Source: a virus. Taken from it: DNA of 64,000 nt. The number at the start of each line of letters is the position of its first letter. Within the stretch, counting starts at the first letter, position 1. The notes under the pieces are model-generated. The model saw only the letters and a list, made by a program, of their open reading frames with translations, did no database searches and was not told where the DNA came from. The position numbers and the translations under genes were made by a program. The stretch covers positions 1 through 64,000 of IMG/VR virus record IMGVR_UViG_3300010430_000014; one strand, 5' to 3'. Of this stretch, positions 10,871 through 40,158 are shown one piece after another.

Positions 10871-11050
10871 GTAGCGGTAGGCGGTAGGTTCAATCAATCA
10901 ATTGAATTGGATCGGTCGGTTTTCAATTGATTGGCATTGTAATTGCATATAGTTAATTGATTAATTGATTGCATTCCAATTGATTGAACTTGACTTGATT
11001 GCAATTGATTAATTGATACAATTGCCTTGCAATCTGATAACCTTAACTTG
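10871..11050. repeat. Junction with GCGGTAG x2, then low-complexity ATTG/CAAT array
   Basis: GTAGCGGTAGGCGGTAGG then many AATTGATT units, CAATTG at 10899, 10924, 10977, 11002, 11019. Confidence 0.65.
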
Positions 11051-11159
11051 ATTGCACTTGAAAGCTTCATAATGGAATGCAATCCCATAAGGTATAGCAA
11101 TGCCACTTCAATATGATATCGTCTTATATATGGCAAATGAAGCGACATTGCTTTCAAGT

Positions 11160-11468
11160 TTAGATACCTTGATTGACCGTAGCAATATAAGCATTCATAG
11201 TATCCAGACAATGACTTTTGAAGGGCATATTAGCAATCAAAGGTATAAGCTTCACTTGATTACTTTCAATATGCCTAAAGTCAAATGCATTGTAAAGATA
11301 CCATGCGAATTGACGCAATGTTTCTTGACCTATATCAGATAGCAAATAGGTATCGATAATCCCGTCAATTTCTATCAAAGCAATATATTCAAATTCGCTT
11401 TTAGTATCCAGTATATCAGTAATGGAATTCAAAGCTTTGAAGCATTCGGTCTTATTGTTATCATTCAT
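11160..11468 (-). CDS. Hypothetical early protein
   Basis: GAAAGGA RBS on minus strand. Confidence 0.7.
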   Translation of the reverse strand: MNDNNKTECFKALNSITDILDTKSEFEYIALIEIDGIIDTYLLSDIGQETLRQFAWYLYNAFDFRHIESNQVKLIPLIANMPFKSHCLDTMNAYIATVNQGI

Positions 11469-11522
11469 TGTTTTATTTTCCTTTCAATGGTCTTATATTC
11501 AATTAAGTGCAATCGCTTCATA

Positions 11523-11602
11523 TACGGTAAATGATAAGCTTTAAAAGCAGAAAACCGATACCACTATAAAGCTAATTATGATATCGGTTTTCTTTTACCG
11601 TA
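11523..11602 (-). terminator. Long hairpin / possibly bidirectional terminator
   Basis: AGAAAACCGATA/TATCGGTTTTCT 12-bp stem plus outer TACGGTAA/TTACCGTA stem. Confidence 0.6.
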
Positions 11603-11611
11603 TTAAATGGA

Positions 11612-12577
11612 CTATGCGAATTTAGATGTTTTTAAATAAGTGAAAAAATCGCCATGATTAACTCCAGATAAATCATTGACTGAATTCTCATTCAAATATT
11701 CTGCAATCAAGCTTGACGTTTTATTATTCAATCCTTCCTGCTTCACCAAATCAACTACTTCAGATATAATCGATTTATCTGCAATCCCATATTGACTTGA
11801 CCAGTAGGCAAAGTCTTTCACTTCAGTATTGACCTTGCTATCAGATACACTGTTATCTGCAATCAAGTCAAGATCATTGCCTATAGCAATCAAGCTTTTG
11901 ACAGCAAGCTTCATGCTGTTCGGAGCAAATATCATTTGATTATTATTTGCATTCTTAAAAGCCTGCCATTGCGCTCTGGTAGTGGCATCAATAGTATCCA
12001 ATGAAGTGAAGTCAATTCCATTAATGAAAAATGAAAATTCGCTCAATTTATCCGCTTTACTGGACTTTGCGAATTTATGATTAAATTGACTTTTGAAAAG
12101 TTCGTATAATGCCTGAACTTCACCCTGCTCAAGACCTTCAATTACCGATTTAAACTCTGAAGTTTTTGCAGTCAATTTAGAATGCTGTTTTCTATTAATA
12201 ATGGTATCTGGATTACTATCGACAATTGCCATTGTCGGTAAAATTTTGGCAAAGTTACCATGCAGAGAATTAACTGCATTCAATGTTGACTTGATATCCT
12301 TAGCCGTGCTTGCGGTAAATTGATTGCATTCCATAATTACTTTGGTCAAAGCTTCAATATCGGATTGCATATTGACGGTATCTAATTGAAGGTTTTTAAT
12401 TTCTTGACGCAAAGCTTCAACTTGAGCAAATTTTTCGGCCGTCATAGAAGCTTCAGAAATGACCGAATCTTTACTTGCAAGCTTTGCAGCTAAACTACTT
12501 TTTTGTAATTGATTATTTGCATTTGCTGTAATGGGATTGACGTTTTTACTTGCATTTAATTTGTCTTTTAAACTCAT
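11612..12577 (-). CDS. Coiled-coil early protein (in-frame extension to 12754)
   Basis: GAAAGGA before MSLKDKL at 12577; second RBS and ATG at 12754. Confidence 0.75.
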   Translation of the reverse strand: MSLKDKLNASKNVNPITANANNQLQKSSLAAKLASKDSVISEASMTAEKFAQVEALRQEIKNLQLDTVNMQSDIEALTKVIMECNQFTASTAKDIKSTLNAVNSLHGNFAKILPTMAIVDSNPDTIINRKQHSKLTAKTSEFKSVIEGLEQGEVQALYELFKSQFNHKFAKSSKADKLSEFSFFINGIDFTSLDTIDATTRAQWQAFKNANNNQMIFAPNSMKLAVKSLIAIGNDLDLIADNSVSDSKVNTEVKDFAYWSSQYGIADKSIISEVVDLVKQEGLNNKTSSLIAEYLNENSVNDLSGVNHGDFFTYLKTSKFA

Positions 12578-12936
12578 GATTTTTCCTTTCATTTGGTTTA
12601 AATCAGCATAAATAGTGGGATTAAAAATCCTATGAATGATTATTTCATTTAATTCATTCTTAAAATATTGATTGACTGAAAAGCAATCAATTCTTGACTC
12701 TGCATATGGAATTAAGTGATTAATCATTGCGCTATTGCCAAAGGTATTTTCCATAATTTTTTCCTTTCTTTTTAAGTGTTAGTCCGATAGCTTATTCATT
12801 TGTTCCATAAATACCGAATAAGCTTTTACCTTACCTTCAATTGCTTTGCCTGTAGGATTATTCCCATTGAAAGCATTCCAGATAGTAAATAAGCAAATTA
12901 CGAAAACGATTGCTAATAAATAACCAATTAAAAATT

Positions 12937-13242
12937 TCATGATTCATTCCTTTCATTGTTTAAAATGCTTTCCAAGTCAGTTAAGTCAAAAACTGATTTT
13001 GAGTCAATTTGATAAGTGATGCAATTGTCTTTCAAGTATTCCCTTTCAAATTTTGCGTTTTCAATTGCTTCAAAGCTATCTGCAATTTCTTTTTTATTTT
13101 CCATATAAAATTCAAAAAATTGCGCTATTGCATTTGAGCAAAGCTTTGAAAGATTGACCTTGATTTTTTCTTGCATTTCAAGTTCTTTCAATTGCCTTGC
13201 TAAGTCCATTGGAATTGAGATGTTAGTTCGTTTTGTTTTCAT
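12937..13242 (-). CDS. Ribbon-helix-helix (CcdA-like) regulator
   Basis: KRTNISIPMDL...VNLSKLCSNAI. Confidence 0.7.
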   Translation of the reverse strand: MKTKRTNISIPMDLARQLKELEMQEKIKVNLSKLCSNAIAQFFEFYMENKKEIADSFEAIENAKFEREYLKDNCITYQIDSKSVFDLTDLESILNNERNES

Positions 13243-13315
13243 TGTTTTTAATTCCTTTCATGTAGTTAAATTGTTTTGTAGTTGTATAGTGTTTTGTGAT
13301 TGCCATTGAAGTTAA

Positions 13316-13344
13316 AATATAATTCATTAAAATGCTATTGTCAA
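13316..13344 (-). promoter_or_regulatory. sigma70 promoter, leftward
   Basis: TTGACA-17-TATATT on minus strand. Confidence 0.75.
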
Positions 13345-13557
13345 GTGTTTATACCTATTTTATTAAAGAAAAAGGGATTATTTTTTAAGTAATTGAATAA
13401 TATCTAATTAAATCAATTAATTAATTGTTATCAAATAATCAATTACGGTATTGTAATTAATTCTTATCAAATAACTGATTATTAGATTATTTCATTTGAT
13501 TGAAAAATATTTTTTTGCTTTAATTGAATATCTAATAATATTAAGTACTTATAAAAT

Positions 13558-13587
13558 TTGACAAGTCAATTTTTCTTATGATATACT
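13558..13587 (+). promoter_or_regulatory. sigma70 promoter, rightward
   Basis: TTGACA-18-TATACT with extended TGn; -35 lies in the TTGAC-AA-GTCAA palindrome. Confidence 0.75.
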
Positions 13588-13749
13588 GTTTTTAATCTAA
13601 TAAATTCAATTAGTTATTAGATTAATTGATTGACCGGAAAAACCTTACCAGAAAAAAGGAAAAAAAGCGATCAATCAATTAGGCAGGTGTGATTGAATCA
13701 TTTTTTAAGTGGCGTATGCTGAGAGATTGATTAAAAATAATTAATCAAT

Positions 13750-13782
13750 AACAAAGCTTCCACAGAAAAATTTTTCAATTAA
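13750..13782 (+). repeat. Dispersed leader motif ACAAA..CACAG.A.(A)TTTTTCAATTAA, copy 1 of 4 (others 16254-16290, 16788-16825, 23305-23336)
   Basis: Direct comparison; all copies are on the + strand, upstream of an RBS. Confidence 0.8.
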
Positions 13783-13832
13783 TTGTCAATTAATTCACAT
13801 TTCAAATCACATTCAATTAAAGGAGAGTAATT

Positions 13833-14663
13833 ATGAAAAAACATCATTTAATTAATCAATCAACTGGCATGACGTACTGTGGCATTAACCCTCTCAATCA
13901 ATTAATTGCATTTGAATATGAAAACGATTGGTTTGATTCAACTGTGCATCCAATTGATCATACCAATTATAAAGAAGTCCTCTGCATTAATTGTACGAAA
14001 CAGCATGACATTCAATTGATTGAAAAGTTTGAGTATGATGCATTCTTAATTGATTACAATAACCGATTGCCTAAAAGTGGTAGGGCAATGAAATTTTTTA
14101 AATCCCAATCCCGATTGAATCGAAAAGCCAATCAATCGAAAAAACCTTCCAATACCATTCAATCAAAACCTTCCGTACCTTCTAAAGAGAAGCAATCCAA
14201 ACCTGTTCAATCCAATCAATCAATCAAAACCTTTCCCAAATCATCTAAAGGCAAGGCAAGGCAAGAAAAGAAAAAAGCCAATCAATCAAAGGCTACTGAA
14301 TCAAAATGTGTTGTAATTGATAAGCCAAAAAAATCATTGATTGAAAAGCCCAAAGATGATATAATTGTATTAAAAGATGAAGTCAAACCATTGATTGATT
14401 TGTCTAAAGGTAGTCAAACGATTATTGCAATTGAAGAAGTTCCAATTGATAAGGATTGGCGATTCGGTGATCCAATTGAAAATGATGTAATTGAATTGGA
14501 AGTCAATGACGATTGGAAAATTGTTAGGCATGATAAGAAATTGAATCAATGGAAGTTTGTCAATCGAATCACCATTAAAGGATTGCCAAAATGGTCTGAT
14601 GATTCTGAATGGATTAATTATAAAGATGCTTGTCAATTAATCAATGACGGATACTGTGATTAA
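13833..14663 (+). CDS. Hypothetical early protein with K/S/Q-rich linker
   Basis: AAGGAG RBS; H..TYCG..CINC Zn-like N-terminus. Confidence 0.7.
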   Translation: MKKHHLINQSTGMTYCGINPLNQLIAFEYENDWFDSTVHPIDHTNYKEVLCINCTKQHDIQLIEKFEYDAFLIDYNNRLPKSGRAMKFFKSQSRLNRKANQSKKPSNTIQSKPSVPSKEKQSKPVQSNQSIKTFPKSSKGKARQEKKKANQSKATESKCVVIDKPKKSLIEKPKDDIIVLKDEVKPLIDLSKGSQTIIAIEEVPIDKDWRFGDPIENDVIELEVNDDWKIVRHDKKLNQWKFVNRITIKGLPKWSDDSEWINYKDACQLINDGYCD

Positions 14664-14670
14664 TCAATCA

Positions 14671-14741
14671 CCCTATTCCAGAACCCTATTCCAGAACTCA
14701 ATTAATCAATCCCTATTCCAGAACTCGATTAGGGATTGATT
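14671..14741 (+). repeat. CCCTATTCCAGAAC x3 with hairpin; 4th copy at 17703
   Basis: Copies at 14671, 14684, 14711; AATCAATCCCTA/TAGGGATTGATT stem. Confidence 0.8.
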
Positions 14742-14756
14742 GAAAGGATTAATATC

Positions 14757-15176
14757 ATGCAATTAACAATTAATACTGAACATTTAAATGCAATTGAAAA
14801 GTATTTGCAATTGACTTTCAATCAAACGAATCGAATCAGCGAAAATCATGTAATTATTAAGACTAATGCATTTCATTTCTATTCATTGCTTAGTCGAATG
14901 AATGAGGAATTGATTGAAGCTGATCTATTGAATGCCTATACAATTCCTTCTAATGGAATCAATGATGGTGGTATTGAATATAATGATGATGAAATGCAAT
15001 TGATTCGATCAGAAGAGATGATCGATAAGATTAGATTGATTGATCAAACTCCAGAACCCAATCAATGTAGCAATTGCATATGTTGTATGAATAAGGAATT
15101 TAATCCATTTTGCATTGAAAGGAATAAATCAGTTCAATTGAATGAAACCTGTATTAATCATGAAAGGAATGATTAA
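14757..15176 (+). CDS. Hypothetical protein, Cys-rich C-terminus
   Basis: GAAAGGA RBS; CSNC..C..C..H. Confidence 0.7.
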   Translation: MQLTINTEHLNAIEKYLQLTFNQTNRISENHVIIKTNAFHFYSLLSRMNEELIEADLLNAYTIPSNGINDGGIEYNDDEMQLIRSEEMIDKIRLIDQTPEPNQCSNCICCMNKEFNPFCIERNKSVQLNETCINHERND

Positions 15177-15376
15177 TGAATTATAAACGGCAATTGGAAT
15201 TGAAAGCAGATCCAGATCAATTGGCAATTGAGGAATTGACCAATCCTAAAATCAATCAATTAAACTTCACTGATTGGATTGCCGATAAACGTTCAATTGG
15301 TAAAAAGAAATTGAATCGAATCAGTAAAAGGCAAAGACGATTTGCAATTAAAAAGAAGCAATTGGGATTGCGATAA
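15176..15376 (+). CDS. Hypothetical basic protein
   Basis: TAATG coupling, RBS. Confidence 0.65.
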   Translation: MNYKRQLELKADPDQLAIEELTNPKINQLNFTDWIADKRSIGKKKLNRISKRQRRFAIKKKQLGLR

Positions 15377-15383
15377 TTCAATC

Positions 15384-15430
15384 AAGGCATATGGTCTGTA
15401 CTTGACATATGCCTTTTTATATTCTATAAT
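15384..15430 (+). promoter_or_regulatory. Consensus sigma70 promoter overlapping a terminator hairpin
   Basis: TTGACA(15402)-17-TATAAT(15425); AAGGCATATG/CATATGCCTT stem followed by TTT. Confidence 0.85.
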
Positions 15431-15481
15431 CAATTTTTCAATAACGTTCAATCACTTAATTAAATGAAAGGAATTAATCAT

Positions 15482-15748
15482 ATGAAGCAAAAAGATGCAA
15501 TCAATGGAGATACTTTAGGGGATATACAATTGGAATCATTTAATCATCCAATCAAGCAAACCTATGATCATTTTATGATAGTAAAAGCCGATGCCGAATC
15601 AATTGCCGAATCAATTAATCACTATCCATTATCTGAAATTGAAAATCAGGAAAAGCTTAATCAATTGATTAATACAATCGAAACCTATCGAGATAATATC
15701 CTATCACATCTGCATTGTATTGATGAAATAATTAACTCACCTGTTTAA
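15482..15748 (+). CDS. Hypothetical early protein
   Basis: GAAAGGA RBS. Confidence 0.7.
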   Translation: MKQKDAINGDTLGDIQLESFNHPIKQTYDHFMIVKADAESIAESINHYPLSEIENQEKLNQLINTIETYRDNILSHLHCIDEIINSPV

Positions 15749-15775
15749 TCAATCAATCATACAATTAAATAATTA

Positions 15776-15820
15776 AAGATCCCTGTTGCGATTCATTCAA
15801 TTGCAATCAGGGATTTTTAT
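15776..15820 (+). terminator. Intrinsic terminator
   Basis: ATCCCTG-TTGCGATT/AATTGCAA-CAGGGAT stem followed by T run. Confidence 0.7.
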
Positions 15821-15979
15821 TGCCTAAATTCCTAAATGAAAGGATCTATCAATGGATAAACAGTCAATCCTAATAGCTCTATTTTCAATCATAATTCTTT
15901 TAATATATCTGTATCCCGATATTTTAAAATGGCTAATCTCTCATTGAAATCACTCAATCAAATGAAAGGAATCAATCAA

Positions 15980-16192
15980 ATGGCTAATAAGAAATTCATT
16001 GTCTTTTGGCAAATGGGTAATCGAATTGGATCAATTGAATTCACTAATTCCAATTGGATTGAAGTTCAAAGTCTATTTACTTTCAATGTAATTCAAACAG
16101 ATGATTCAGGAACTATTCATTTGGAATTGCTTGGAAAAGCCAATTCAAATGTAATTAAACTATCCGATTTAATCATTCAATCACTTAATTAA
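15980..16192 (+). CDS. Hypothetical early protein
   Basis: GAAAGGA RBS. Confidence 0.65.
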   Translation: MANKKFIVFWQMGNRIGSIEFTNSNWIEVQSLFTFNVIQTDDSGTIHLELLGKANSNVIKLSDLIIQSLN

Positions 16193-16308
16193 TCAATCAA
16201 TCAATATATTAAAAAAATAGTAATGATTCATTAATTGATAATCATCCATATGTATATGACAAACCTATCACAGAAAATTTTTCAATTAAACTATGAAAGG
16301 AATCAATT

Positions 16309-16734
16309 ATGGGAAAGCAAATGATTAAAACAGATTTGAATTATGAACAATTGGCAGAAGCATTTCAGATTGAATTAGAGAATGTAGTATTACTCTATAA
16401 AGTAATCAACAATGACATTGACTTAGGCATATTTGAATCAGTTAAACAATTAAGAAGTCAATGCTACAATCCTCCCAAAGTAATTGATGAACAAATGGAA
16501 GCATTGAATGGATTGATTGAAGGATTTGGCATTGAAGCACTCACAAATGAAAACTTTTGGCATTCTCATTACTGGCAAGATACCTATGGATTATATGTCA
16601 ATCAAGGTGAATCCTATGCTTTGACAATCGTTTATAATGTGATTGATGATATATTTGAATTTACGTCAATGGGTGATTTTGTTGAATCTATGGAGAATCA
16701 ATTGCAATCAGAATCCGATGAAAATAATCTGTAA
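16309..16734 (+). CDS. Phage early-region hypothetical protein
   Basis: EGFGIEAL..YVNQGESY..TI motif; RBS. Confidence 0.75.
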   Translation: MGKQMIKTDLNYEQLAEAFQIELENVVLLYKVINNDIDLGIFESVKQLRSQCYNPPKVIDEQMEALNGLIEGFGIEALTNENFWHSHYWQDTYGLYVNQGESYALTIVYNVIDDIFEFTSMGDFVESMENQLQSESDENNL

Positions 16735-16751
16735 AATAATGTATTTTTTTC

Positions 16752-16780
16752 TTGACAAGTCAATCAATATTATATATAGT
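16752..16780 (+). promoter_or_regulatory. sigma70 promoter
   Basis: TTGACA-17-TATAGT; shares TTGACAAGTCAAT with 13558. Confidence 0.8.
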
Positions 16781-16866
16781 TCCATTTTATATGACAAACC
16801 CTTCACAGCAGTTTTTTTCAATTAACTACAAACAATTAACAATCTAATCAATCGAAAGGAGTCATT

Positions 16867-17694
16867 ATGGATCACAAATTTTTCAATCAATTAATCGAAG
16901 ACATTAACATTACTATTGGATTACACATTGATTCAATGGAAAACATTCATTCCAAATGCATTTGTGATGATCCTGAATGTCATGGCAAATGTCCTCATTG
17001 TTTAACAAAAATAAATATTCACAACCTATCCAATGCAATCACTTCTTTAAATGACTACACTATTAACACTTCCAATCTCATTCAATTAATTGATGCTGAA
17101 GCATTTCGATATGCATTAGAAAACCATACTGATTTAAAATGTGTCAAATGCTATCCTGTATTCAATGATCCTAATGCAGAACTCGATTACCCTAATTCAG
17201 AACCCGATTCATTTGCAATTGAAGCAACTTATGAAAGGTATGCAATGAATCCAATGGGATATCATATTGGATATGAAACTGTTGTATTTAAATGGATGGC
17301 AATTAAAAAGAGTCAATTAGAAATACTTGGATTACCTAAATTGCTTTCCAATTGGGTTGTAATGATTGATAAGTATGTAATTGAATCAAAAGATCTTCCT
17401 GATAATGAAGATCCAATTCATAATGCCGATTGCGAATTTGATGATGTTTTCGCTTCATTTGATAATTGCGATTGCGCTGATTCATTTGAAGGCTATTGGC
17501 AACCAGATGATGACTTCTTTTATCAAGAAATGAATCATATCATTGAAATGATGCAAATCCCTGAAGCATCATTCAATCCAGATAAACGTGAATGGTGGTT
17601 AGGTGATATCTCATTCAATCTCGATGAATTTGAATCAATTAAAGAATATCATGAATGTTGTATAGAAGATAATGGAATGCCTTTTACTGGATAA
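16867..17694 (+). CDS. Acidic Cys-rich hypothetical protein
   Basis: GAAAGGAG RBS; D/E-rich. Confidence 0.75.
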   Translation: MDHKFFNQLIEDINITIGLHIDSMENIHSKCICDDPECHGKCPHCLTKINIHNLSNAITSLNDYTINTSNLIQLIDAEAFRYALENHTDLKCVKCYPVFNDPNAELDYPNSEPDSFAIEATYERYAMNPMGYHIGYETVVFKWMAIKKSQLEILGLPKLLSNWVVMIDKYVIESKDLPDNEDPIHNADCEFDDVFASFDNCDCADSFEGYWQPDDDFFYQEMNHIIEMMQIPEASFNPDKREWWLGDISFNLDEFESIKEYHECCIEDNGMPFTG

Positions 17695-17747
17695 TTGATT
17701 ATCCTATTCCAGAACTCAATTAATCCTATTATAGAAAGGAATTAATC

Positions 17748-17891
17748 ATGGCGAAATGTATTCAATCAATCAAAGATGGTAAAGTTAAACGTGTATCCAA
17801 TGATCAAGCAAAAGAAGATGTTCAATCAGGCAAATGGAAGTATATAGGTAAATCAGAATACGCACGAATCAAACAATCAAAGGAGAAATAA
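17748..17891 (+). CDS. Small hypothetical protein (not in ORF track)
   Basis: GAAAGGA RBS; MAKCIQSIKDGKVKRVSND...WKY. Confidence 0.7.
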   Translation: MAKCIQSIKDGKVKRVSNDQAKEDVQSGKWKYIGKSEYARIKQSKEK

Positions 17892-17895
17892 GCCT

Positions 17896-18204
17896 ATGAT
17901 CTATTATGTAATTGATTGTGGATTCAATCAAACAAATTATCCTGATTTAATTGGGCAATTCTTTTCAAATGCTCCATCTTATTCAATTGTTAAATTATTA
18001 CCTGATCCTTATCGAAAACATAGCTGTTGGAATTGTGATAAGGATTGGATTGTAAAAGTTGAATTGAATAAAACAACAATTAATCTATCAGGTGAAAAAA
18101 CTCAATATTGTCCTGAATGCAATCAAAAGTCTTCCATTGCAAGTAATTGGATTCAATCAAATAATAATCCATATCCATTTCCAAAACCTAAACTAATTAA
18201 ATGA
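17896..18204 (+). CDS. Zn-ribbon hypothetical protein
   Basis: CWNC...CPEC. Confidence 0.7.
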   Translation: MIYYVIDCGFNQTNYPDLIGQFFSNAPSYSIVKLLPDPYRKHSCWNCDKDWIVKVELNKTTINLSGEKTQYCPECNQKSSIASNWIQSNNNPYPFPKPKLIK

Positions 18205-18216
18205 AAGGAGTCAATT

Positions 18217-18768
18217 ATGATAGTAATTTATTCACCGACTACCAAATCAAGAATGGCAATCGATGGTATTATCCGCAATCAATCATCCTTATGGTATCTC
18301 ATTGGAATTGGAATGGGATTTGAAACCTGTTGTTTACTTGTCAATTGCGAATCAGAAGATGAAGCAATGGGTATATATGCCGATTCCAAATACGCTCATT
18401 TAACTGAGGTTGAATTAAAAGATTTAAATGATCATCTTATTCCAGAACGTAAAGAAGCAATTGATTTAATGGAACAGATTAGAGATGAAGCTGAAGATGC
18501 AATTGATCAATTAGAAAATCAATATGATTATAAAGATTATAATTTGGATCAATCAGGTATTTGTATTCGTGATTGGGCAAATGATTTAAGTTCAATTGAT
18601 TGGGATAACGATGAACTTCATTCCAATCTCACTTATTTAGGTAATGAAAGCAAACCACATCAATTGGATGAATTACGATTGTTTGAATGCATTCCCAAAA
18701 GTCAAATTGATTTCTTTCACAAAAAGACCGATCTTATGTTCGATCCCAAACGCAATCAACAGTTTTAA
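18217..18768 (+). CDS. Acidic hypothetical protein
   Basis: GAAAGGAG RBS. Confidence 0.75.
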   Translation: MIVIYSPTTKSRMAIDGIIRNQSSLWYLIGIGMGFETCCLLVNCESEDEAMGIYADSKYAHLTEVELKDLNDHLIPERKEAIDLMEQIRDEAEDAIDQLENQYDYKDYNLDQSGICIRDWANDLSSIDWDNDELHSNLTYLGNESKPHQLDELRLFECIPKSQIDFFHKKTDLMFDPKRNQQF

Positions 18769-18784
18769 TTAAAAGGAATCAATT

Positions 18785-32993: not shown

Positions 32994-33009
32994 ACAAACG
33001 AAAGGAGTA

Positions 33010-34506
33010 ATGCTTATGTTAAACTTAACTAACTATCAAAAGGCAGGGTATGGTTGTGTGTTTGTCGAAACAATGGAAATTAAACGTGCAATCAAATCAA
33101 TTGAAATCGATGAACCATTTAAGAAAAAAATCTGGAGTCCTATTCGGGGCATCATCAATGATATGCACCAATTCGATAAAGATCAACCAATAAGTCCAAT
33201 TGATGTTCTTCGATTATCTGTCGGACAACAGGAAGATGGATCATTTGGCAATGCTCCACAAAACACCGCTTTTATTTTGGAAAATTTCGATGAATTCATT
33301 GAACAATTCGATGTAGTCCAGACTATCCTTGATATTTATGATCTATTAAAAGCCAATGCTACCATGATTATTATGGTGGGATCTAATGCAGAGGCGATTC
33401 CCTCCAAACTTAAAGAATTCATCCCTGTTGAAAAATTTGAATTACCAAATGATGAAGAAATCAAATTGATTGCTGATGGTATTGCCGAATCTTCAATTGA
33501 AGAATTAGGTGATAGCTATAAGGATAAATTTACAGTTAACAATTCAGTAATTGAAGCATTCAAAGGGTTGACTTGGGAAGAAATTGAAAACGCAGCAGCT
33601 AAATCAGCAGTTGAAACCCGATCATTCGATTATCGTCATATCATGGATCGTAAAGCAATGGTAATTAAAAAGACCGGATTCATGCAATTCATTGAACCTG
33701 AACCATTGGAAAATCTTGGTGGTCTGGATGAGTACAAAGAATATTGGCAATTAAGATCAGAACCTTTCCTTAATGAATCATCCAATAAGCCTAAAGTCAA
33801 AGCTATCCTTTGTGCCGGATACCCTGGAACTGGAAAAACACTTGCTGCTAAAGTCCTTTGTTCTATTCTCAATTGGCCTGGGATCTTATTCGACATTGGT
33901 GCAATTAAAGAGGGTATTGTAGGTGAAACTGAGAAGAAGATGCGTAGAGCAACATATACAATTGATTCCATTGGAAGATGCGTAATCATTATGGATGAAA
34001 TTGAAAAGTTCTTTGGATCTGAAAGTAATACAATGGACAGTGGTGTTCAATCAGGAATGCTTGGACATATGCTTACATGGATGCAAGAAAGACAATCTGA
34101 AGGTATTCTATTTGGAACGGCAAATAAACTCGATGCACTTCCACCTGAATTCAAAAGAGCAGGTGGTCGATGGGATACTATCTTCTTTGTTAATTTACCT
34201 AATCCTAATGAAGTCAAAAAGATAATTGAAATTCACAATCGAAAATATAATGCTGATGTTCAAACAGATAATAAATTTTGCGCTCAATTATCTAATGATG
34301 GATGGTCTGGAGCAGAAATTGAACAATTGGTTAAAGATTCTCATTATGAACCAATTGAAGAAGCAATGATACATATTCCTGTTCTTTCCAAACATGAAGC
34401 TAAAAAGTTTCAAAGAACAAGAGAACAAGCACAATTGTTTCGATGGGCTAATGAAAAGAAAGAAACAACAGAAGTTAAAAAACCCCGAAAAATTAAACTT
34501 CAGTAA
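33010..34506 (+). CDS. Ycf46-like AAA+ ATPase
   Basis: Degenerate N-terminal AAA, LGGL, GYPGTGKT, MDEIEK, ANKLDALPPEFKRAGGRWD. Confidence 0.88.
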   Translation: MLMLNLTNYQKAGYGCVFVETMEIKRAIKSIEIDEPFKKKIWSPIRGIINDMHQFDKDQPISPIDVLRLSVGQQEDGSFGNAPQNTAFILENFDEFIEQFDVVQTILDIYDLLKANATMIIMVGSNAEAIPSKLKEFIPVEKFELPNDEEIKLIADGIAESSIEELGDSYKDKFTVNNSVIEAFKGLTWEEIENAAAKSAVETRSFDYRHIMDRKAMVIKKTGFMQFIEPEPLENLGGLDEYKEYWQLRSEPFLNESSNKPKVKAILCAGYPGTGKTLAAKVLCSILNWPGILFDIGAIKEGIVGETEKKMRRATYTIDSIGRCVIIMDEIEKFFGSESNTMDSGVQSGMLGHMLTWMQERQSEGILFGTANKLDALPPEFKRAGGRWDTIFFVNLPNPNEVKKIIEIHNRKYNADVQTDNKFCAQLSNDGWSGAEIEQLVKDSHYEPIEEAMIHIPVLSKHEAKKFQRTREQAQLFRWANEKKETTEVKKPRKIKLQ

Positions 34507-34507
34507 A

Positions 34508-34792
34508 ATGAATAAATATATACAACAATATTGGACAATTGATTATGAAGATCCTGATCCATATCGAATATTAAAATGTCCTAATCCTAAATGTGGACAT
34601 GAACAAGCAGAAACAAAATGGGTAGGATGGCATTCAATGGAAATTGAAGCTAAATGTCCTAAATGTAAATGTGTTTATCTACATGATTGTGAAACAGGAG
34701 CAAGTGATTTAATTTTTGTTAAAAATATAATGACATTAAAACAAAAATTAAATGCAATTAAATTTAAATACCAATTAGAAAAAGGAGATTGA
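34508..34792 (+). CDS. Zn-ribbon hypothetical protein
   Basis: CPNPKC..CPKC. Confidence 0.65.
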   Translation: MNKYIQQYWTIDYEDPDPYRILKCPNPKCGHEQAETKWVGWHSMEIEAKCPKCKCVYLHDCETGASDLIFVKNIMTLKQKLNAIKFKYQLEKGD

Positions 34793-34793
34793 T

Positions 34794-35234
34794 ATGTCAC
34801 ATAATGAAATAATTGATTTAGAAATAGGTGATCTCAAAGTATTAGCTGCAACAGTTAAACGAATGAATGGCGAATTGATACTTAATAAAAAAACCTATCG
34901 TTGGTATGGACATAATGTTGGTGATTACCCTTTACCGGAAGGTGTTAAAGCAGAAGATCTTGGCAAATGTAAACATGCAATTGTATTTCCTGATATTGAT
35001 TATCAAGTCGGAGTAATTGAATCTCGATCTAAAAAAGGAGCATATGAATTACTTTGGGATTTTTATGATCGTCAATTGAAAGAAAGAATGGGAGGAGAAA
35101 AAGGAATTGCACTTATTCAACATTATACAATGGTAAAAGCTAAAAATGCTGCTACTCAAAAAGGTAAAATATGTCGTGAATCAATGATTAAAACCAAAAC
35201 AGGAATCAAACGCAAAATAGTAATCAACGTATAA
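34794..35234 (+). CDS. DUF1257 (Ycf35-like) protein
   Basis: MSH..I..EI.DL..L, YRWYG, Y.L.WDFY; next to Ycf46-like AAA. Confidence 0.75.
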   Translation: MSHNEIIDLEIGDLKVLAATVKRMNGELILNKKTYRWYGHNVGDYPLPEGVKAEDLGKCKHAIVFPDIDYQVGVIESRSKKGAYELLWDFYDRQLKERMGGEKGIALIQHYTMVKAKNAATQKGKICRESMIKTKTGIKRKIVINV

Positions 35235-35245
35235 AGGAGTCAATT

Positions 35246-35449
35246 ATGCAAAAACAAATAATCATAGAAGTCGATGAAAATGGAAAGATCAATTTTGAAA
35301 CTGACGGATTTGTTGGGCCAGAATGCGTTAATAATGATATAGTCAATCATATTAAAAATGCATTAGGCAATGGACTTGGGCCAGATCTTAAACCTATATT
35401 TTATCAGAAAGGTCAAACAAAAACAGTTCATAAAAATCTCTGTGGTTAA
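35246..35449 (+). CDS. DUF2997 protein
   Basis: IIIEVDENGKI.FETDGFVGPEC...LG...KP.FY. Confidence 0.85.
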   Translation: MQKQIIIEVDENGKINFETDGFVGPECVNNDIVNHIKNALGNGLGPDLKPIFYQKGQTKTVHKNLCG

Positions 35450-35477
35450 ACATAAAACAGGGGAATCATACTTTCAA

Positions 35478-36020
35478 ATGGATCTTTATAAAGTTATATT
35501 TATTATACCCTCAACTGGCAATCGAATTATATTTGATCAAGTTCAAGCTGAAGTTGAAATACAAGAAAAAAATTATGAACATAAAAATGCATTTGGTGCA
35601 ATTGATGCTATAATACCATTATCGCATTATTTAGATATTGTTCTTACAATACATCATCATGATATAGCTCAATTGAATGAAGTTAAAGGACAATTATATT
35701 CAGAAGAATTATATCTTCATTTTAAAGATGCTCATCCTTGTTTAATTCGTGGAACAGTAAGAGCAATGACATTTGATAATCATAATGCAACAGTTAGATT
35801 CAAGGGTAATACAATTGATAAAACTTACGATGATTATATTACAGAAGCAACTACTCAATTAAATGAAGCTTTTGAATATACTTTAGAATCAGAAAATCCA
35901 ATTGACGATGGTAAAACAGATTTTGATGAATGGAAAGAAGGTACAATTGTGAGTAAAGGAATAAATCAAGCAGATAAAGAAAAGAAAGGTAAAGTAATTA
36001 AACGCAAACTTACTTTTTAA
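35478..36020 (+). CDS. Hypothetical protein ending KRKLTF
   Basis: Open frame; start inferred at ATG 35478. Confidence 0.6.
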   Translation: MDLYKVIFIIPSTGNRIIFDQVQAEVEIQEKNYEHKNAFGAIDAIIPLSHYLDIVLTIHHHDIAQLNEVKGQLYSEELYLHFKDAHPCLIRGTVRAMTFDNHNATVRFKGNTIDKTYDDYITEATTQLNEAFEYTLESENPIDDGKTDFDEWKEGTIVSKGINQADKEKKGKVIKRKLTF

Positions 36021-36037
36021 AAGAAAGGAATAATGCT

Positions 36038-36931
36038 ATGCCGAAAATATCAAAAAACAAAAGCAATGAAATTAATATTTTTGACCTTGGAACCTTATGC
36101 CAATTTGAAACTCATTCATGGCAAGCACGTAAAACCATACCTAAAGAGATTAAAGAACGAATGACTGAAGAAACTGAATGGGTATCTGGTTTTAGACGAT
36201 TAATTAAAAAGGAACGTCTACAACCAATCAATTCAGTCATTACTTCAGTTCGGAACTATATTTGGGATATCTCTTTGGAATTTCCAATTAAATCCGTTCA
36301 TTTCATTTCCAATCAAGTTACAGAAGAAGCAGACATTAAACTCAGGGCATATGTTAAAATGCTTAAAAAAGAAGTTAATCTATTTGCCAAAGACTATGAC
36401 AAATGGATTAAGGAATCTGAAAAAGCCTTAAAGAAAGACGGATTATTCGATAAGGGATTATATCCAATGAATGTTAGGAATTTATATTCAATTGAATGGA
36501 GATGGTTTGACATGACTATCCCTGCCGGAATTACTGATGAGATGTATAAGGTTGAATCTGATCGTATTCAAAATATGATGGATGAAACAAGGCATAACTG
36601 CATTATCGCAATGCGTGAAGGATTTGGTCAATTGGTAATGCATTTAACCGATACTCTGAATGGTAAATTGGATGGTGAAAAGCGCAGGGTCAGACCTGAA
36701 TCATTGGAAAAGATTGACAAGTTCTTTGAAACCTTCAAATACAAAAATATATTCAATGATAATCAATTGCAAGGTATAGTTACTCAAGCTAAAGATCTGT
36801 TGTCTGATGTAACTCCTAAAGATATTCGCAATGATGAATCATTGACCAAATTGATTCATTCTGAATTAAGTGATATGCAAAATGAACTTTCTAAAGCAAC
36901 TGAAACATATAAACGTAAGTTAACCTTTTAG
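36038..36931 (+). CDS. DUF3150-like protein ending KRKLTF
   Basis: W...K...RRLI, F...Y.....E, YP...R..Y...W pattern; context with AAA/DUF1257/DUF2997. Confidence 0.6.
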   Translation: MPKISKNKSNEINIFDLGTLCQFETHSWQARKTIPKEIKERMTEETEWVSGFRRLIKKERLQPINSVITSVRNYIWDISLEFPIKSVHFISNQVTEEADIKLRAYVKMLKKEVNLFAKDYDKWIKESEKALKKDGLFDKGLYPMNVRNLYSIEWRWFDMTIPAGITDEMYKVESDRIQNMMDETRHNCIIAMREGFGQLVMHLTDTLNGKLDGEKRRVRPESLEKIDKFFETFKYKNIFNDNQLQGIVTQAKDLLSDVTPKDIRNDESLTKLIHSELSDMQNELSKATETYKRKLTF

Positions 36932-36941
36932 GAGTTACCTA

Positions 36942-37385
36942 ATGGCATATGATCCAGAATTTTCAGTTGATCGATATAACCTTGAAATTGAAGCAGAACG
37001 TCAATCAGCATTGATGCGTAAATGGACTAAACGACAAGGAAGACATAAATCATTACTCAAATCAGCACAAAAAAATCTGGATATTCTGGAAGGTGAATTA
37101 GCTGAAGAATATAGACGTAACAAAAAAACATATGGTATTCAAAAGGATACTGATCAAGTAATCTTTCGATTAATTAAAGGTGATCCTAAATATGAAACTC
37201 AATACAAAGAAGTAATAAAATATCAACGATTGTATGATGATGCTAAATCAGCAGTAGATTCAATTGTTGAGAAAGGATGGATGATTAAAGAATTGGTTAA
37301 ACTATGGTTAAATAATTATTATTCAAATCCAATTGTTAAAGAAAATGAAATTAAACCCAAACGAATTATTTTAAAGGAGGATTAA
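36942..37385 (+). CDS. UvsY-like recombination mediator
   Basis: DRYNLEIEAERQS..MRKW helical protein; next to SSB and RecA. Confidence 0.55.
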   Translation: MAYDPEFSVDRYNLEIEAERQSALMRKWTKRQGRHKSLLKSAQKNLDILEGELAEEYRRNKKTYGIQKDTDQVIFRLIKGDPKYETQYKEVIKYQRLYDDAKSAVDSIVEKGWMIKELVKLWLNNYYSNPIVKENEIKPKRIILKED

Positions 37386-37387
37386 TT

Positions 37388-38584
37388 ATGTCATTACAAG
37401 ATCGATTGAACAAAAACAAAGCAAAATTGGGATTAGGTACAAAATCTTCTGAAAGTGCAATTGTTGATAAGTTTAAAAAGCGCAGTACAACTACATTGGA
37501 AAAAACATATGATGATAGAGATAAACAGACTAAATCAGGTGGAATGGGTAAAACTATTTTTGATCCTGAAATGCTTATAGAATATGGATTAGAAGAATGG
37601 CAACCTCATCAAACAGTAGGTGATCACTTTTTTGATATCATGCCTGTTTCATTCGATCCATTGATTCCTTATTGCTTTGAAACATTAGTTCATTTTGCAG
37701 TAGGTTTCGCAAAAGATCAATACATTTGTCCTCATCATTCTCATAGAAAAACTTGCTATCGATGTGAAGCTCAATCAAAACTCTATCGTAAAAAGGAAGA
37801 AATGCTTAAAATATGGTCAGAAGAACGATTCAAAGATGCAGCAAAACGATTGTATCCAAGAGATAGAGTTATTTTCTTAATCTGGAAACGTACTGAAGAA
37901 TTACTGCAAGATGAACCATCTGATCTTACATTACGATTGTGGAATGCACCAAAAGAAGCAGTTCATAAAGAAATCCAAGCAAAAGTTAGAGATAAGATCA
38001 ATCGAACAACATTGGATATTTCTGATATCTCTCCTAATGGTGAAGGTCGAACTGTTGGAATGGAAATTGCAAAAAATAAAACATCAGCAGGTACATTTCC
38101 TGGGTATAGTGCATTTGAATTACATCCAAGAGAAAAACCAATTCCAAAGGAAATATTAGAACAATTGAATAAAATCATAATTGATGCAGATGAAAATGGT
38201 TTTAATAACGCAATTGAAATGTTCATTCACTTCCCTACCTATGAAGAAATCAAAGAATCAATGTTGACTGAAGAAGATGATGATGAAAAAACTCCTACTG
38301 CTTCTGACAAAAAATCATCATTAAAACAACAATTACAATCAAAAGACATAGAAGATGATAATAACAAAACAGTTACCGTTGAAGAAGTTTTAAAAGAAAT
38401 TGAATTAATATGTGCTGAATTACAAGAAATGCTTAATAAAAAATCTTCAATTGCATTTAAAGCATGGTGCAAAAATAATAATTACGAAGAAGCATTAGAA
38501 TTTTCTGAACAGACAGCAGCAGTTGAAGCTATTATTGAAGATTTTTATGAAAAACAAATAGCTGAAGCAGATGTTGATATTTAA
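37388..38584 (+). CDS. gp32-like single-stranded DNA-binding protein
   Basis: H..VG...CP....CYRCE Zn site, acidic C-terminus, next to recA. Confidence 0.7.
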   Translation: MSLQDRLNKNKAKLGLGTKSSESAIVDKFKKRSTTTLEKTYDDRDKQTKSGGMGKTIFDPEMLIEYGLEEWQPHQTVGDHFFDIMPVSFDPLIPYCFETLVHFAVGFAKDQYICPHHSHRKTCYRCEAQSKLYRKKEEMLKIWSEERFKDAAKRLYPRDRVIFLIWKRTEELLQDEPSDLTLRLWNAPKEAVHKEIQAKVRDKINRTTLDISDISPNGEGRTVGMEIAKNKTSAGTFPGYSAFELHPREKPIPKEILEQLNKIIIDADENGFNNAIEMFIHFPTYEEIKESMLTEEDDDEKTPTASDKKSSLKQQLQSKDIEDDNNKTVTVEEVLKEIELICAELQEMLNKKSSIAFKAWCKNNNYEEALEFSEQTAAVEAIIEDFYEKQIAEADVDI

Positions 38585-38615
38585 CTTTTAATTAATTATA
38601 TAATAAGGAGCAATC

Positions 38616-39743
38616 ATGGCAAGAATTAAATTGGAATCCAAAATACCCAATTTACGTGAGCGATTAAAAACTTGCGAAATATTGCCAGAAGTAGAGATAG
38701 GTTTAAAAAAACCTCTCTATTTTGTGGATTCGGGTTCTTGGATGTTAAATTTAGCATTAACAAATCAAGTGGATCAAGGTTATCCAGTCGGTAGAGTAAT
38801 TAATCCAATTGGAGATTATTCTACCGGAAAAACCTTATTAGCATGTGAAGAAGTCAATTCAATATGGTATTTGGAGCATATACTTAAAAATAAAAAAGTT
38901 AAAATCTATTATGATGAACCAGAACATGCTTTTGATTATCGATTAGCTGCAAAGTTTAATGTACCATTAAATGAAGTATATGGATTACGTGAAGATCTAA
39001 AAGGATACAAACATAAAAAAGGTGAAAAACCTTTTACACGATCACGTACAGTTGAAGATCTTTATAATAATCTTGATCGCATTACTAAAACTGAAAGTGA
39101 TTATGACATTGTTCTTTATGTATTAGATTCACTTGATTCATTAAGAGATGCAAGAGAAATTAAACATCTTAAAACAAAAGGTATTGCTAAACAAGACATG
39201 GGAGGATCTAAAGCAAGGGTATTATCTCAATTGTTTCGTAATATGATTGAAGGTGTACATAATTCAAATATTCTATTGTTTATCTTATCTCAAATCCGAA
39301 TGAATGTCGGTGTAGTATTTGGAGATCCAAATGGAAGGGCAGGTGGCAAAGCTCTGGATCATTATGCTTCACAAATGTTTATGCTCAAAGAAATTGGAAA
39401 AATTCAAACTGAGAAAAAAATCAATCAAGGAATTGAAGTTAGAGTTAAAATTAAAAAGAACAAAACAGGTAGTCGTTACAATGATGTTGTTTTTAATATT
39501 TTACATGGATATGGAATTGATAACTATGGATCTGCTGTAAATTTTCTTTGGGATGAAAAACAATTTGAACGATCCGGTAATTATCTTATTTTTAATGGAG
39601 AAAAAATGTATCGAGCAGATCTAATTGAATTAGCAGCTAACAATATAAATGTTGCAGATCTTTTAAAAGAAAAATTACAATTCTATTGGAATGAAATCGT
39701 TCTTGAAGCTGAGATTGATCGAAAACCTAAATGGGGAGGTTAA
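38616..39743 (+). CDS. recA: RecA/UvsX recombinase
   Basis: SGS..LN.AL, GDYSTGKT, VLDSLD, SQIR, GGKALDHYAS, KNK. Confidence 0.95.
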   Translation: MARIKLESKIPNLRERLKTCEILPEVEIGLKKPLYFVDSGSWMLNLALTNQVDQGYPVGRVINPIGDYSTGKTLLACEEVNSIWYLEHILKNKKVKIYYDEPEHAFDYRLAAKFNVPLNEVYGLREDLKGYKHKKGEKPFTRSRTVEDLYNNLDRITKTESDYDIVLYVLDSLDSLRDAREIKHLKTKGIAKQDMGGSKARVLSQLFRNMIEGVHNSNILLFILSQIRMNVGVVFGDPNGRAGGKALDHYASQMFMLKEIGKIQTEKKINQGIEVRVKIKKNKTGSRYNDVVFNILHGYGIDNYGSAVNFLWDEKQFERSGNYLIFNGEKMYRADLIELAANNINVADLLKEKLQFYWNEIVLEAEIDRKPKWGG

Positions 39744-39744
39744 C

Positions 39745-40158
39745 TTGGATGATTTAAAAAAGTTTTTTGATTTTTTTTTGAGTGCAGATTCCAAAGAAAG
39801 AGAAGCAGTTTTTGGAAAAATACCCAATTTTCGTGGACTATTAAAAATCAATCAAGAGTTTAATTTTATTAAGCTAACGGATTTAATTCAATTATATGTC
39901 TATCTTTTTTATCCAAAGGATATTATTGTAGTTATTTTAGATCCTCAATTAGCAATAGAATATGTACCAAAAATTAAAATGTTAAAGAGGGATAATTTTG
40001 ATGCATATTTAAAAGCCAAATATTGTAATTTTATTGTAATTGATTTTGAATCAATTGTAGCAGCAGAAGATTGGGTATTTTCTTTTCCTACTAATGAAAT
40101 CAAATATGAAATTTATTCAAAAACAAAATTAGTTCGGAGTCAAGAAGGAAAAATATAA
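39745..40158 (+). CDS. Hypothetical protein
   Basis: GGAGG RBS before TTG 39745. Confidence 0.6.
   Translation: MDDLKKFFDFFLSADSKEREAVFGKIPNFRGLLKINQEFNFIKLTDLIQLYVYLFYPKDIIVVILDPQLAIEYVPKIKMLKRDNFDAYLKAKYCNFIVIDFESIVAAEDWVFSFPTNEIKYEIYSKTKLVRSQEGKI

Follow-up and report, generated by a model that had tools for sequence, protein, structure and literature searches.

The closest described counterpart of the feature reported here is HIP1 (GCGATCGC), for which the cited portions of two reports describe a 15- to 300-fold over-representation in cyanobacterial chromosomes, conservation, and recognition by two methylases (PMC5861425, PMC13756078). HIP1-like palindromes have gone unexplained for decades, in part because they are ubiquitous in the genomes that carry them. 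The hexamer CAATTG described here is likewise a short, unexplained palindrome that is many-fold over-represented, lies within genes, is held against codon usage and kept among relatives, and appears to be kept by selection. HIP1 is however genome-wide and quasi-periodic with known methylases, whereas CAATTG is restricted to one phage transcription domain, is graded and randomly spaced, has enriched half-words, and is accompanied by no methylase found in either the record studied (G000) or its relative (G001). The signal stands on a background purged of other palindromes, and its confinement and grading supply both an internal control, the other blocks of the same genome and strand, and a dose axis.

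Several other systems share single attributes with this domain. The MunI/MfeI restriction-modification system recognizes the identical sequence (C^AATTG), but a restriction-modification target does not predict the enrichment of half-words seen here. Dam and SeqA read GATC clusters at oriC, and such clusters are also found in the control regions pac of phage P1 and mom of Mu. There too a short palindrome is concentrated in one region, which gives a methylase or binding protein a whole domain to act on; these clusters span hundreds of bases and do not reshape codon use or protein composition, whereas the CAATTG domain covers 30 kb. The viral architectural proteins p6 of phi29 and TF1 of SPO1 coat early DNA and read bendability or modified bases. 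A protein of this type would occupy an early region in a graded manner with low specificity and help to shut off early transcription, but these proteins read no defined hexamer and no homologue was identified here. Avoidance of restriction sites is presented in the cited part of one report as a widespread phage anti-restriction strategy (PMC6286503); it is extreme in these genomes, with 15 palindromes at zero, and CAATTG behaves in the opposite manner. The first-step-transfer region of phage T5, as far as the cited text describes it (10.1101/866236), resembles this domain in two ways: it forms the early arm of a large phage genome, and its boundary element is rich in repeats and palindromes (the T5 record annotates an injection-stop region at 9140-10149); T5 has no word gradient, unlike the CAATTG domain.

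The window, the whole 64,000-nucleotide stretch analyzed, contains the domain of early and replication genes of a tailed phage, uncultured and from marine sediment, with a genome of ~90-108 kb. The window belongs to an 89-kb record (G000) that is 83% complete, and the 108-kb relative (G001) is 100% complete. The organization of the window is as follows.

10585-10870, no strand: spacer separating the rightward accessory block from the domain, with a T-run hairpin after the last accessory gene followed by an AT-rich stretch
10871-11060, no strand: onset array, in which tandem TCAA/ATTG tetramers converge at CAATTG, with repeated AATTGATT units
11160-13242, minus strand: leftward early operon with moderate enrichment (ATTG/CAAT at 29-38 per kb, background ~18)
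12937-13242, minus strand: first gene of the leftward operon, encoding a weakly matched ribbon-helix-helix (RHH) protein (CcdA/RHH_3, E 0.003-0.004, below cut-off)
13243-13832, no strand: divergent early promoter region, with sites at 13344(-) and 13558(+), each one mismatch from TTGACA-N17/18-TATAAT
13833-27400, plus strand: early block of small ORFs of unassigned function, where the bias peaks (5.4 per kb for CAATTG, with ATTG/CAAT reaching 66 per kb)
27400-44700, plus strand: replication/recombination block, in which the bias fades to background (2.9 CAATTG per kb)
44700-53561, plus strand: helicase-primase block, at background (6 CAATTG against 5.2 expected, and 137 ATTG/CAAT against 125)

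The early-block proteins mostly have no Pfam or PHROG name. The replication block encodes a split PolA with UDG-like and exonuclease parts, an AAA ATPase, RecA-like and RusA-like proteins and an exonuclease; the helicase-primase block, which encodes DnaB-like, SNF2-type helicase and primase-like proteins in the same operon direction, is where the gradient ends.

The window contains 145 copies of CAATTG; dinucleotide-preserving shuffles give 41.4±6.7, and none of 100 reaches 145. The 15 positions given in the original prediction are all present (five in 10899-11024 and ten in 14791-15364), and the three tail sites it named, 54850, 60174 and 61399, are the only ones in the window after 54 kb. 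Across the 89-kb record there are 169 copies, 128 of them within the 10.9-44.7 kb domain that makes up 38% of its length, such that the density is 3.8 per kb in the domain and 0.74 per kb elsewhere; uniformity over the genome, which would have spoken against a regional signal, is not seen, and G001 shows the same contrast between inside and outside. Where base composition predicts ~0.65 sites per 2 kb, the observed count is 0-3 before 10 kb, reaches 18 at 14-16 kb, stays at 7-12 as far as 26 kb and at 3-11 as far as 42 kb, and drops to 0-4 beyond. The excess survives synonymous-codon shuffling gene by gene, with 68 copies against 36.8±4.1 at 13.8-27.4 kb and 46 against 17.7±3.5 at 27.4-44.7 kb, and the flanking and late blocks are at expectation in the same shuffles (6 against 4.1, 6 against 5.2, and 28 against 25.5). 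It also survives Markov models summed over local 1-kb expectations: CAATTG is at 4.9-fold (G000) and 5.0-fold (G001) with order 1 and 2.9-fold and 2.5-fold with order 2. A separate order-2 Markov estimate for the domain gives 128 against 42.4. At order 1 no enrichment is seen for words with a matching dinucleotide make-up (GAATTC 1.1/1.2, TGATCA 0.8/0.7 and TCATGA 0.6/0.6 for G000/G001), AAATTT is at or below local expectation, and GAAT, CATT and TGAT are at 1.0-1.16 compared with 1.63/1.75 for ATTG.

The palindrome is the tip of a wider word family, and the original prediction, which had taken CAATTG as the biased word, was correct as to its enrichment and too narrow as to its extent. CAAT and ATTG are enriched twofold on both strands, together with CAATCA, GATTGA and CGATTG, and all four cyclic permutations of the unit are raised (ATTG 2.05-fold, AATC 1.87-fold, TCAA 1.77-fold and ATCA 1.46-fold). 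The twofold tetramer excess accounts for much of the hexamer excess; co-occurrence of CAAT and ATTG at offset 2 is 13-fold in the domain and 11-fold outside it. The bias acts on codon choice, as had been anticipated. The tripeptides [STPA]-I-[VADEG] are spelled nCA-ATT-G at 70 of 94 places in the G000 domain (expected share 0.30) and at 31 of 106 outside it, and in G001 at 70 of 91 (expected 0.27) and 26 of 111. Four-fold codons end in A in 74%/68% of cases before Ile and 47%/44% before other residues, and the Ile codon is ATT in 75-88% of cases when G follows and 51-60% otherwise. The record is 93% coding and 124 of the 128 domain sites lie in coding DNA by rough gene calls, but the bias is present in all three frames and, again as predicted, in non-coding DNA (28.9 against 14.7 and 41.3 against 16.8 ATTG/CAAT per kb); on the sense strand both members of each complementary dinucleotide pair move jointly. 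The excess is strand-symmetric, and neither codon usage nor protein sequence nor the local content of di- and trinucleotides accounts for it. These data support a pressure that works at the sequence level on duplex DNA, overriding the choice of codons and shifting amino-acid composition.

CAATTG peaks immediately downstream of the divergent sigma70-like early promoters and falls approximately linearly over 30 kb, bearing out the predicted fading through the replication block (5.4 to 2.9 per kb). Among 53 genes, word density correlates with position (Spearman -0.79; slope -1.09 per kb, CI -1.45 to -0.72), whereas protein identity is not a significant predictor. Further promoter-like sites of the TTGACA-N17/18-TATAAT type are at 15402(+, perfect), 16752(+) and 16797(-), which with 13344 and 13558 make five of the ten in the whole record. 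The abrupt onset predicted near 10.9 kb is real in so far as the array at 10.87-11.06 kb holds five CAATTG within 126 bp, but the onset has a second step: the array and the moderately enriched leftward operon come first, and the main compositional jump is at 13.3-14 kb. Left of the spacer the word is at background (6 sites across 9.3 kb of genes). In all four blocks the spacing of sites cannot be told from random placement (gap CV of 0.86-0.98 against 0.97-0.98), and the sites show no pairing, no excess of short gaps and no 10.5-nt helical phase.

The enrichment is conserved within the clade and absent outside it. All ten related loci are enriched, as is the complete relative G001, whereas none of four outgroup loci is, and T7 and the first 50 kb of T5 have an index of 0.8-1.26 with neither trend nor enrichment. 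The domain architecture is common to G000, G001 and a third lineage (L027); G001 has an onset array at the matching place (five CAATTG in 56293-56416) and a counterpart of the promoter pair (58499(-)/58730(+)), and L027 has a four-site CAATTG cluster at 7420-7811. The bias is conserved even though the relatives' proteins are merely 45-80% identical, and the word is kept across lineages whose four-fold sites are 53% identical. Aligned CAATTG sites are retained in the relative at 33 of 77 places in the domain, compared with a hexamer mean of 18%, and at 4 of 23 outside it, compared with 16%. A permissive tripeptide is kept in both genomes at 30 places, and the word is present at 27 and 25 of these. 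Kept sites thus follow from kept peptides and near-saturating usage, with no separate sign of site-specific conservation.

Fifteen other hexamer palindromes, for each of which the summed expectation is 12 or more, are missing altogether from the two genomes, including CTTAAG (57 expected), TTCGAA (55) and GGATCC (45), so CAATTG would seem to be tolerated or wanted where the others are lethal. We infer that selection rather than mutation keeps CAATTG, and that some factor probably reads or writes it on DNA. Our leading interpretation, held tentatively at a probability of about 0.45, is that the word is positively maintained as a domain-wide cis signal. CAATTG and its half-words CAAT and ATTG would be maintained on double-stranded DNA at nearly every place that the protein permits, and their density would address a factor acting site by site on the duplex. 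This factor, of phage or host origin, may bind DNA sequence-specifically or may be an enzyme that modifies it, and its occupancy or marking would be graded along the early-to-middle transcription unit.

Several alternatives account for parts of these observations. DNA that is exposed or expressed before anti-defense functions act could lose defense motifs and collapse onto a tolerated vocabulary in which CAAT, ATTG and CAATTG are commonest, with a gradient that would track exposure time. The extreme genome-wide purge fits this proposal, as do the 10-15% fewer distinct 6-mers and lower 4-mer entropy of the early block, its scarcer TpA steps, A/T runs and long A/T-only stretches, and a mirror-dinucleotide index that climbs from 1.3 to 2.1 and then decays smoothly. 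It should, however, raise all tolerated words jointly and only the CAAT family rises; the purge is no stronger inside the domain, and TATAAT-like words show no special depletion. Avoidance cannot yield a positive excess; GAATTC, TGATCA, TCATGA, GAAT and CATT are at or below local expectation, and CAATTG is about fivefold above it. The original prediction of a narrowed k-mer space thus holds as a description and not as a cause, and we regard avoidance as an unlikely source of the signal. Neutral writing, in which slippage or template switching from (CAAT)n arrays spreads functionless cryptic simple sequence, is improbable in our judgment, although several observations fit it: in two genomes the onset is marked by pure tetramer arrays, tandem CAATCAAT and ATTGATTG are at 2.3-3.6 times chance within the domain only (CAATCAAT 30 against 11.4 and 46 against 12.8), all cyclic permutations are enriched and spacing is random. 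The raised CAATCAAT fits a slippage-type writer and counts against our main explanation. Tetramer slippage would nevertheless cause frameshifts in a record that is 93% coding with bias in all three frames, the word persists between lineages with four-fold sites just 53% identical, and weakly conserved genes outside the domain remain at background (14.8-18.5 per kb). We also know of no process that acts on 30 kb of one arm with linear decay.

The original prediction had proposed that this is the first-injected DNA, with the gradient representing entry time and the word serving a DNA-entry or end-protecting protein. The abrupt left edge with one-sided decay does look as if counted from a physical end on a circular map, and the repeat and palindrome array at the edge loosely recalls the T5 injection-stop region. 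The proposal is nonetheless not supported and we consider it quite improbable: X2 and X3 contigs span 10.6-11.0 kb; in G001 the onset lies ~14 kb downstream of the terminase gene (40.2-41.7 kb) and of the point where the late operon starts (~42.3 kb), and a block of accessory genes occupies the interval; the strongest bias begins at the promoters, 2.5-3 kb inside the edge; and T7 and the first 50 kb of T5, which have known polar entry, lack such a gradient. The edge itself is a strain-level recombination junction at 10865-10870; runs X3 and X4 both show loose ends at 10870, and X4 also joins 10865 to 14365. Selection on RNA, by which early transcripts made of complementary CAAU and AUUG words would fold more and mimic strand symmetry, is very improbable. 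Sense 150-nt windows of the early block do fold slightly better than dinucleotide shuffles (mean z -0.89±0.38 and -0.66±0.20, against -0.24 to -0.27 in other blocks), but the effect is small (~1.5 kcal/mol per 150 nt), antisense folds as well, and the bias is also carried by the opposite-strand leftward operon, the untranscribed-looking onset array and the non-coding spacers.

Returning to the domain-wide cis signal, a more specific and doubtful version is that graded CAATTG/CAAT constitutes a cis-encoded 'domain code', a phage-specific marking of ~30 kb of early and middle DNA by which a reader or writer acting site by site on the duplex would gain a graded occupancy that times early shut-off or shields this arm. 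A dimeric binder might read it, as might a modification enzyme from host or phage; in the shielding variant, this arm would be protected and the rest of the genome would rely on the absence of palindromes. Such a code would make CAATTG a regional and functional analog of HIP1, and the first iterated palindrome with a testable positional logic. A reader or writer of any kind would show how a phage marks a whole temporal gene class at the DNA level. Pressure for a DNA word can alter amino-acid composition across dozens of proteins, which matters for annotation and for codon-based host prediction.

CAATTG may be a binding or modification target, as the original prediction suggested. Profile searches of G000 and G001 gave no match to the DNA methylase families PF01555, PF02086 and PF00145, nor to PF05063 (MT-A70) or the MunI nuclease Pfam family, for both of which the control also matched nowhere. 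A type II restriction-modification target of the MunI/MfeI kind is not supported: the searches found no cognate nuclease or methylase gene in genomes that are 83% and 100% complete, and such a site is expected to be avoided in exposed phage DNA, whereas CAATTG is enriched and 15 others are purged. An operator array for an RHH or other dimeric repressor is not supported either, as the sites are not concentrated at promoters and show neither pairs nor phase. The small RHH protein is the sole DNA-binding candidate, present in two of the three leftward operons examined; the L027 operon has none among ORFs of at least 45 aa, and the homologue in G001 matches CcdA at 25.5 bits, above the 22.4 cut-off (pairwise E 4e-6). 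The leftward operon at 11160-13242 is a variable cassette and holds an AAGCTT cluster.

The record containing the window (G000) is a single contig of 89,161 bases, classed as linear and 83% complete, with ~30% G+C; the window is its first 64 kb. Rough gene calls give 125 open reading frames occupying 93% of G000, arranged as follows:

0.4–10.6 kb, rightward: accessory block (radical SAM, SAM-methyltransferases, DUF4326, NADAR)
11.2–13.2 kb, leftward: short operon
13.2–13.8 kb: divergent promoter region
13.8–53.6 kb, rightward: 40-kb gene run, in the order small unknown ORFs; split PolA, AAA ATPase, RecA-like, RusA-like and exonuclease genes; DnaB-like, SNF2 and primase-like genes
From 53.5 kb, leftward: late block with tail proteins

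The complete genome of a relative (G001; 107,962 bases with a 144-base end overlap) shares this map and supplies the head genes missing from G000, with the major head protein, protease and large terminase at 35.5–41.7 kb; no phage tRNAs were found in the window or in G001. The G000 stretch is present, as contigs only, in six marine-sediment metagenome runs from six studies, and no RNA run is listed among its holders. Naming the phage by similarity failed: neither the G000 DNA nor one protein query has a match in the phage collection, and no entry listed there exceeds 28% identity to the G000 PolA. The family A polymerase is split over two genes (window 29625–32993), a UDG-like plus 3'-5' exonuclease part followed by the polymerase part, with ~585 bases including another ORF between them. 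The accessory block encodes DUF4326 (E 4e-20; window 6354–6767) and NADAR (E 3e-20; 10123–10584) proteins beside a radical-SAM enzyme and three SAM-methyltransferases, and these two proteins we take to be a possible counter-defence against ADP-ribosylation of DNA. Three unrelated proteins (gene ends 31196, 36020 and 36931) terminate in RRKLSF or KRKLTF, and other proteins have similar basic-hydrophobic tails.

The hexamer CAATTG occurs 145 times in the window against 41.4±6.7 in dinucleotide shuffles, and 169 times in G000, where 128 copies lie within 10,890–44,700 (3.8 per kb versus 0.74 per kb elsewhere; 5.05-fold). The original prediction drew attention to this palindrome and its abrupt rise at ~10.9 kb; all of its CAATTG coordinates are correct, and the excess outlasts synonymous-codon shuffles within genes (68 versus 36.8±4.1 at 13.8–27.4 kb, and 46 versus 17.7±3.5 at 27.4–44.7 kb). 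In the accessory, helicase-primase and late blocks CAATTG is at expectation by per-gene synonymous shuffles, and the non-coding DNA of the enriched domain, which comprises the early and replication genes, is enriched too. The hexamer has an excess of its own, with 128 copies in G000 against 72 (order 3) or 103 (order 4) expected, and 145 in G001 against 88 or 105.

CAATTG is the strongest member of a word family. Relative to the rest of G000, the domain is enriched in ATTG/CAAT (2.05-fold), AATC (1.87-fold) and TCAA (1.77-fold), as well as GATTGA (5.1-fold), CAATCA (4.9-fold), CAATCG (7.5-fold) and AATTGA (3.8-fold); there is no such enrichment of words beginning CAATA, of CAATTT or of words altered at the two central bases. 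Overlaps of CAAT with ATTG at offset 2 are 13 times as frequent as by chance in the domain and 11 times outside it, so that squaring the twofold tetramer excess yields much of the fivefold hexamer excess. A longer motif was rejected because the flanks of CAATTG are nearly uninformative, A being merely disfavoured directly before the word. Among dinucleotides, the domain prefers AT, GA/TC and CA/TG to the mirror-image TA, AG/CT and AC/GT, which gives A/T runs of the form A^nT^m. In G000 the mirror-dinucleotide index climbs from ~1.3 to a value of 2.12 at 14 kb, then declines smoothly, reaching ~1.25 by 40–44 kb; in G001 it reaches 2.19 at 58 kb and has decayed by 84–92 kb. Both members of each complementary dinucleotide pair shift jointly on the sense strand, showing that the pressure acts on the duplex. 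This dinucleotide grammar is real but insufficient as a cause: over order-1 expectation from local 1-kb composition, CAATTG is raised 4.9- and 5.0-fold and ATTG 1.63- and 1.75-fold in G000 and G001 respectively, whereas the equally grammatical GAAT, CATT, TGAT, GAATTC, TGATCA and TCATGA stand at 0.6–1.2.

The strength of the preference can be gauged from coding sequence. Within the domain the tripeptide [STPA]-I-[VADEG] is encoded as nCA-ATT-G at 70 of 94 places in G000 (expected share 0.30) and 70 of 91 in G001 (expected 0.27), compared with 31/106 and 26/111 outside it; the two halves (CA before AT, ATT before G) are picked separately, with mild synergy. Gln-Leu is written CAATTG at 35/87 and 43/79 places, and amino-acid usage itself favours Q, N, D and I at the expense of T, V and G. 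Codon usage does not account for this, as the share of TTG among Leu codons is 24% in the early block but also 20% in the unenriched late block, and gene-wise codon-keeping shuffles still leave a 1.8–2.6-fold CAATTG excess. Neither does protein composition alone: codon-order permutation yields 11.4 and 9.6 copies against the 68 and 46 observed, and although the proteins are shifted as well, the bias extends to non-coding DNA.

The density of ATTG/CAAT per kb is ~18 up to 10 kb, 29–47 at 10–14 kb, and 66 and 61 at 14–16 kb, from where it falls steadily to ~18 by 44 kb. Across 53 genes it declines with position (Spearman -0.79; -1.09 per kb, CI -1.45 to -0.72), and it is correlated between orthologues (rho 0.79). 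Relaxed constraint on fast-evolving genes was rejected, as identity to the G001 orthologue has no added effect on density in the position model and poorly conserved genes outside the domain have background density. The peak lies directly downstream of two promoters, at 13344(-) and 13558(+), that differ from the sigma70 consensus by one mismatch; with the sigma70-like sites at 15402, 16752 and 16797, they make up five of the ten such sites in G000. TATAAT-like words are not specially depleted, and promoter (-10) avoidance was rejected. Placement of CAATTG within the domain is approximately random, without clustering, even spacing or helical phase. DNA curvature or helical phasing was likewise rejected, as there is no power at 10–11 nt and the copies show no phase.

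The same pattern is found among relatives. All ten loci found via PolA (63–80% identical) carry 1.3–4.0 CAATTG per kb, falling likewise across the polymerase gene, and another lineage has 56 copies in the first 11 kb of its early block. G001 has 211 copies against two of the reversed word GTTAAC. Four outgroup loci with 24–29% identical polymerases have 0.2–0.4 per kb, T7 has 8 copies in 40 kb and T5 21 in 50 kb, and the dinucleotide gradient is absent from T7 and T5. When 66 orthologue pairs are aligned by codon, 33 of 77 G000 copies within the domain have a match in G001 (mean hexamer 18%), as do 4 of 23 outside it (mean hexamer 16%); the 33 matches are explained by kept peptides and near-saturating usage, the word being present at 27 and 25 of 30 shared permissive places. 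These data show that CAATTG and its half-words are under a positive, duplex-level and clade-specific pressure, graded along the early transcription unit.

The left edge of the domain has its own construction. At 10,871–11,060, tandem TCAA and ATTG tetramers converge at five CAATTG, an array with a counterpart of the same construction in G001 at 56.25–56.42 kb, and a third lineage has a four-CAATTG cluster at the equivalent place. Further copies of the onset were sought with one protein query and a two-row alignment, which gave only the G001 copy and a contig ending 168 bp upstream of the gene; a metagenome scan added the third lineage. Contigs from two runs span the edge, the sequence after 10,870 differs in two runs, and one contig joins 10,865 to 14,365, with strain variants replacing or deleting 10866–14364; this marks the edge as a recombination junction, and the leftward operon as a replaceable cassette. 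AAGCTT, nearly confined to window 11062–13759, has 18 of its 19 G000 copies within 10.9–44.7 kb, most of them in this operon, and is absent from G001; the operon appears to be an interchangeable cassette with a different origin.

We favour, at a probability of roughly 45%, the reading that the word is kept by selection for a factor that would read or write CAATTG site by site. The leading rival, although improbable, is that the excess is a by-product of motif avoidance. Fifteen hexamer palindromes, including CTTAAG, TTCGAA, GGATCC, CTGCAG, TCTAGA, CCATGG, CAGCTG and ACTAGT, have zero copies in both G000 and G001 (summed expectations 12–57 each); GATATC, AAGCTT and ACATGT are additionally missing from G001, and CAATTG is the only palindrome clearly over expectation (2.25 overall). 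The phages therefore appear to be unmodified and under strong selection by type II restriction, a background against which hundreds of copies of a single palindrome stand out all the more. Neutral, slippage-type writing of the word is somewhat less probable again. The proposal in the original prediction that the domain is the first-injected DNA is unlikely: a genome end at the onset finds no support, as contigs cross the edge, and in G001 the terminase gene (40.2–41.7 kb) and late-operon start (~42.3 kb) lie ~14 kb upstream of the onset. RNA folding, for which there is a weak trend only, is very unlikely as the cause.

For the favoured reader or writer of CAATTG, three DNA-methylase families have no match in G000 or G001, nor do the MT-A70 and MunI nuclease families, for both of which the controls were also silent. 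Almost none of 33 early-domain and leftward-operon proteins could be named from Pfam or PHROGs, two Atlas look-ups gave no usable match, and a PDB sequence search returned only a weak CcdA match (E 0.029). The leftward operons encode small, related (E 4e-6) ribbon-helix-helix proteins, CcdA-like in G000 (12937–13242, -; profile score below cut-off) and matching CcdA above cut-off in G001 (56724–56930, -; 25.5 bits). The protein is present in two of the three lineages examined, not being seen in the third, and may merely regulate its own operon. Among the papers listed on CAATTG in phages and on over-represented palindromes in early genes, we found no description of a domain of this type; a passage of PMC4916379 concerns only a primer.

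The early-gene spacers contain further repeats. CCTATTCCAGAAC has four exact copies, at window 14672–14724 (three within 53 bases) and 17703–17715, and two more with one mismatch, where ~0.02 copies are expected by chance; it may be an operator or promoter element. Copies of CACAG-N5/6-TTTTCAATTAA precede early genes at 13761–13782, 16804–16825, ~16.27 kb and ~23.33 kb, with a gap of 6 bases in two and 5 in two, and this motif may represent a second promoter class. Early genes at 13.8–27 kb have a stereotyped start region, GAAAGGA[GA]T[CT]AATT-ATG, and TCAATCA(ATCA) comes after several stop codons; late genes have TAAGGAG-type sites and different spacers.
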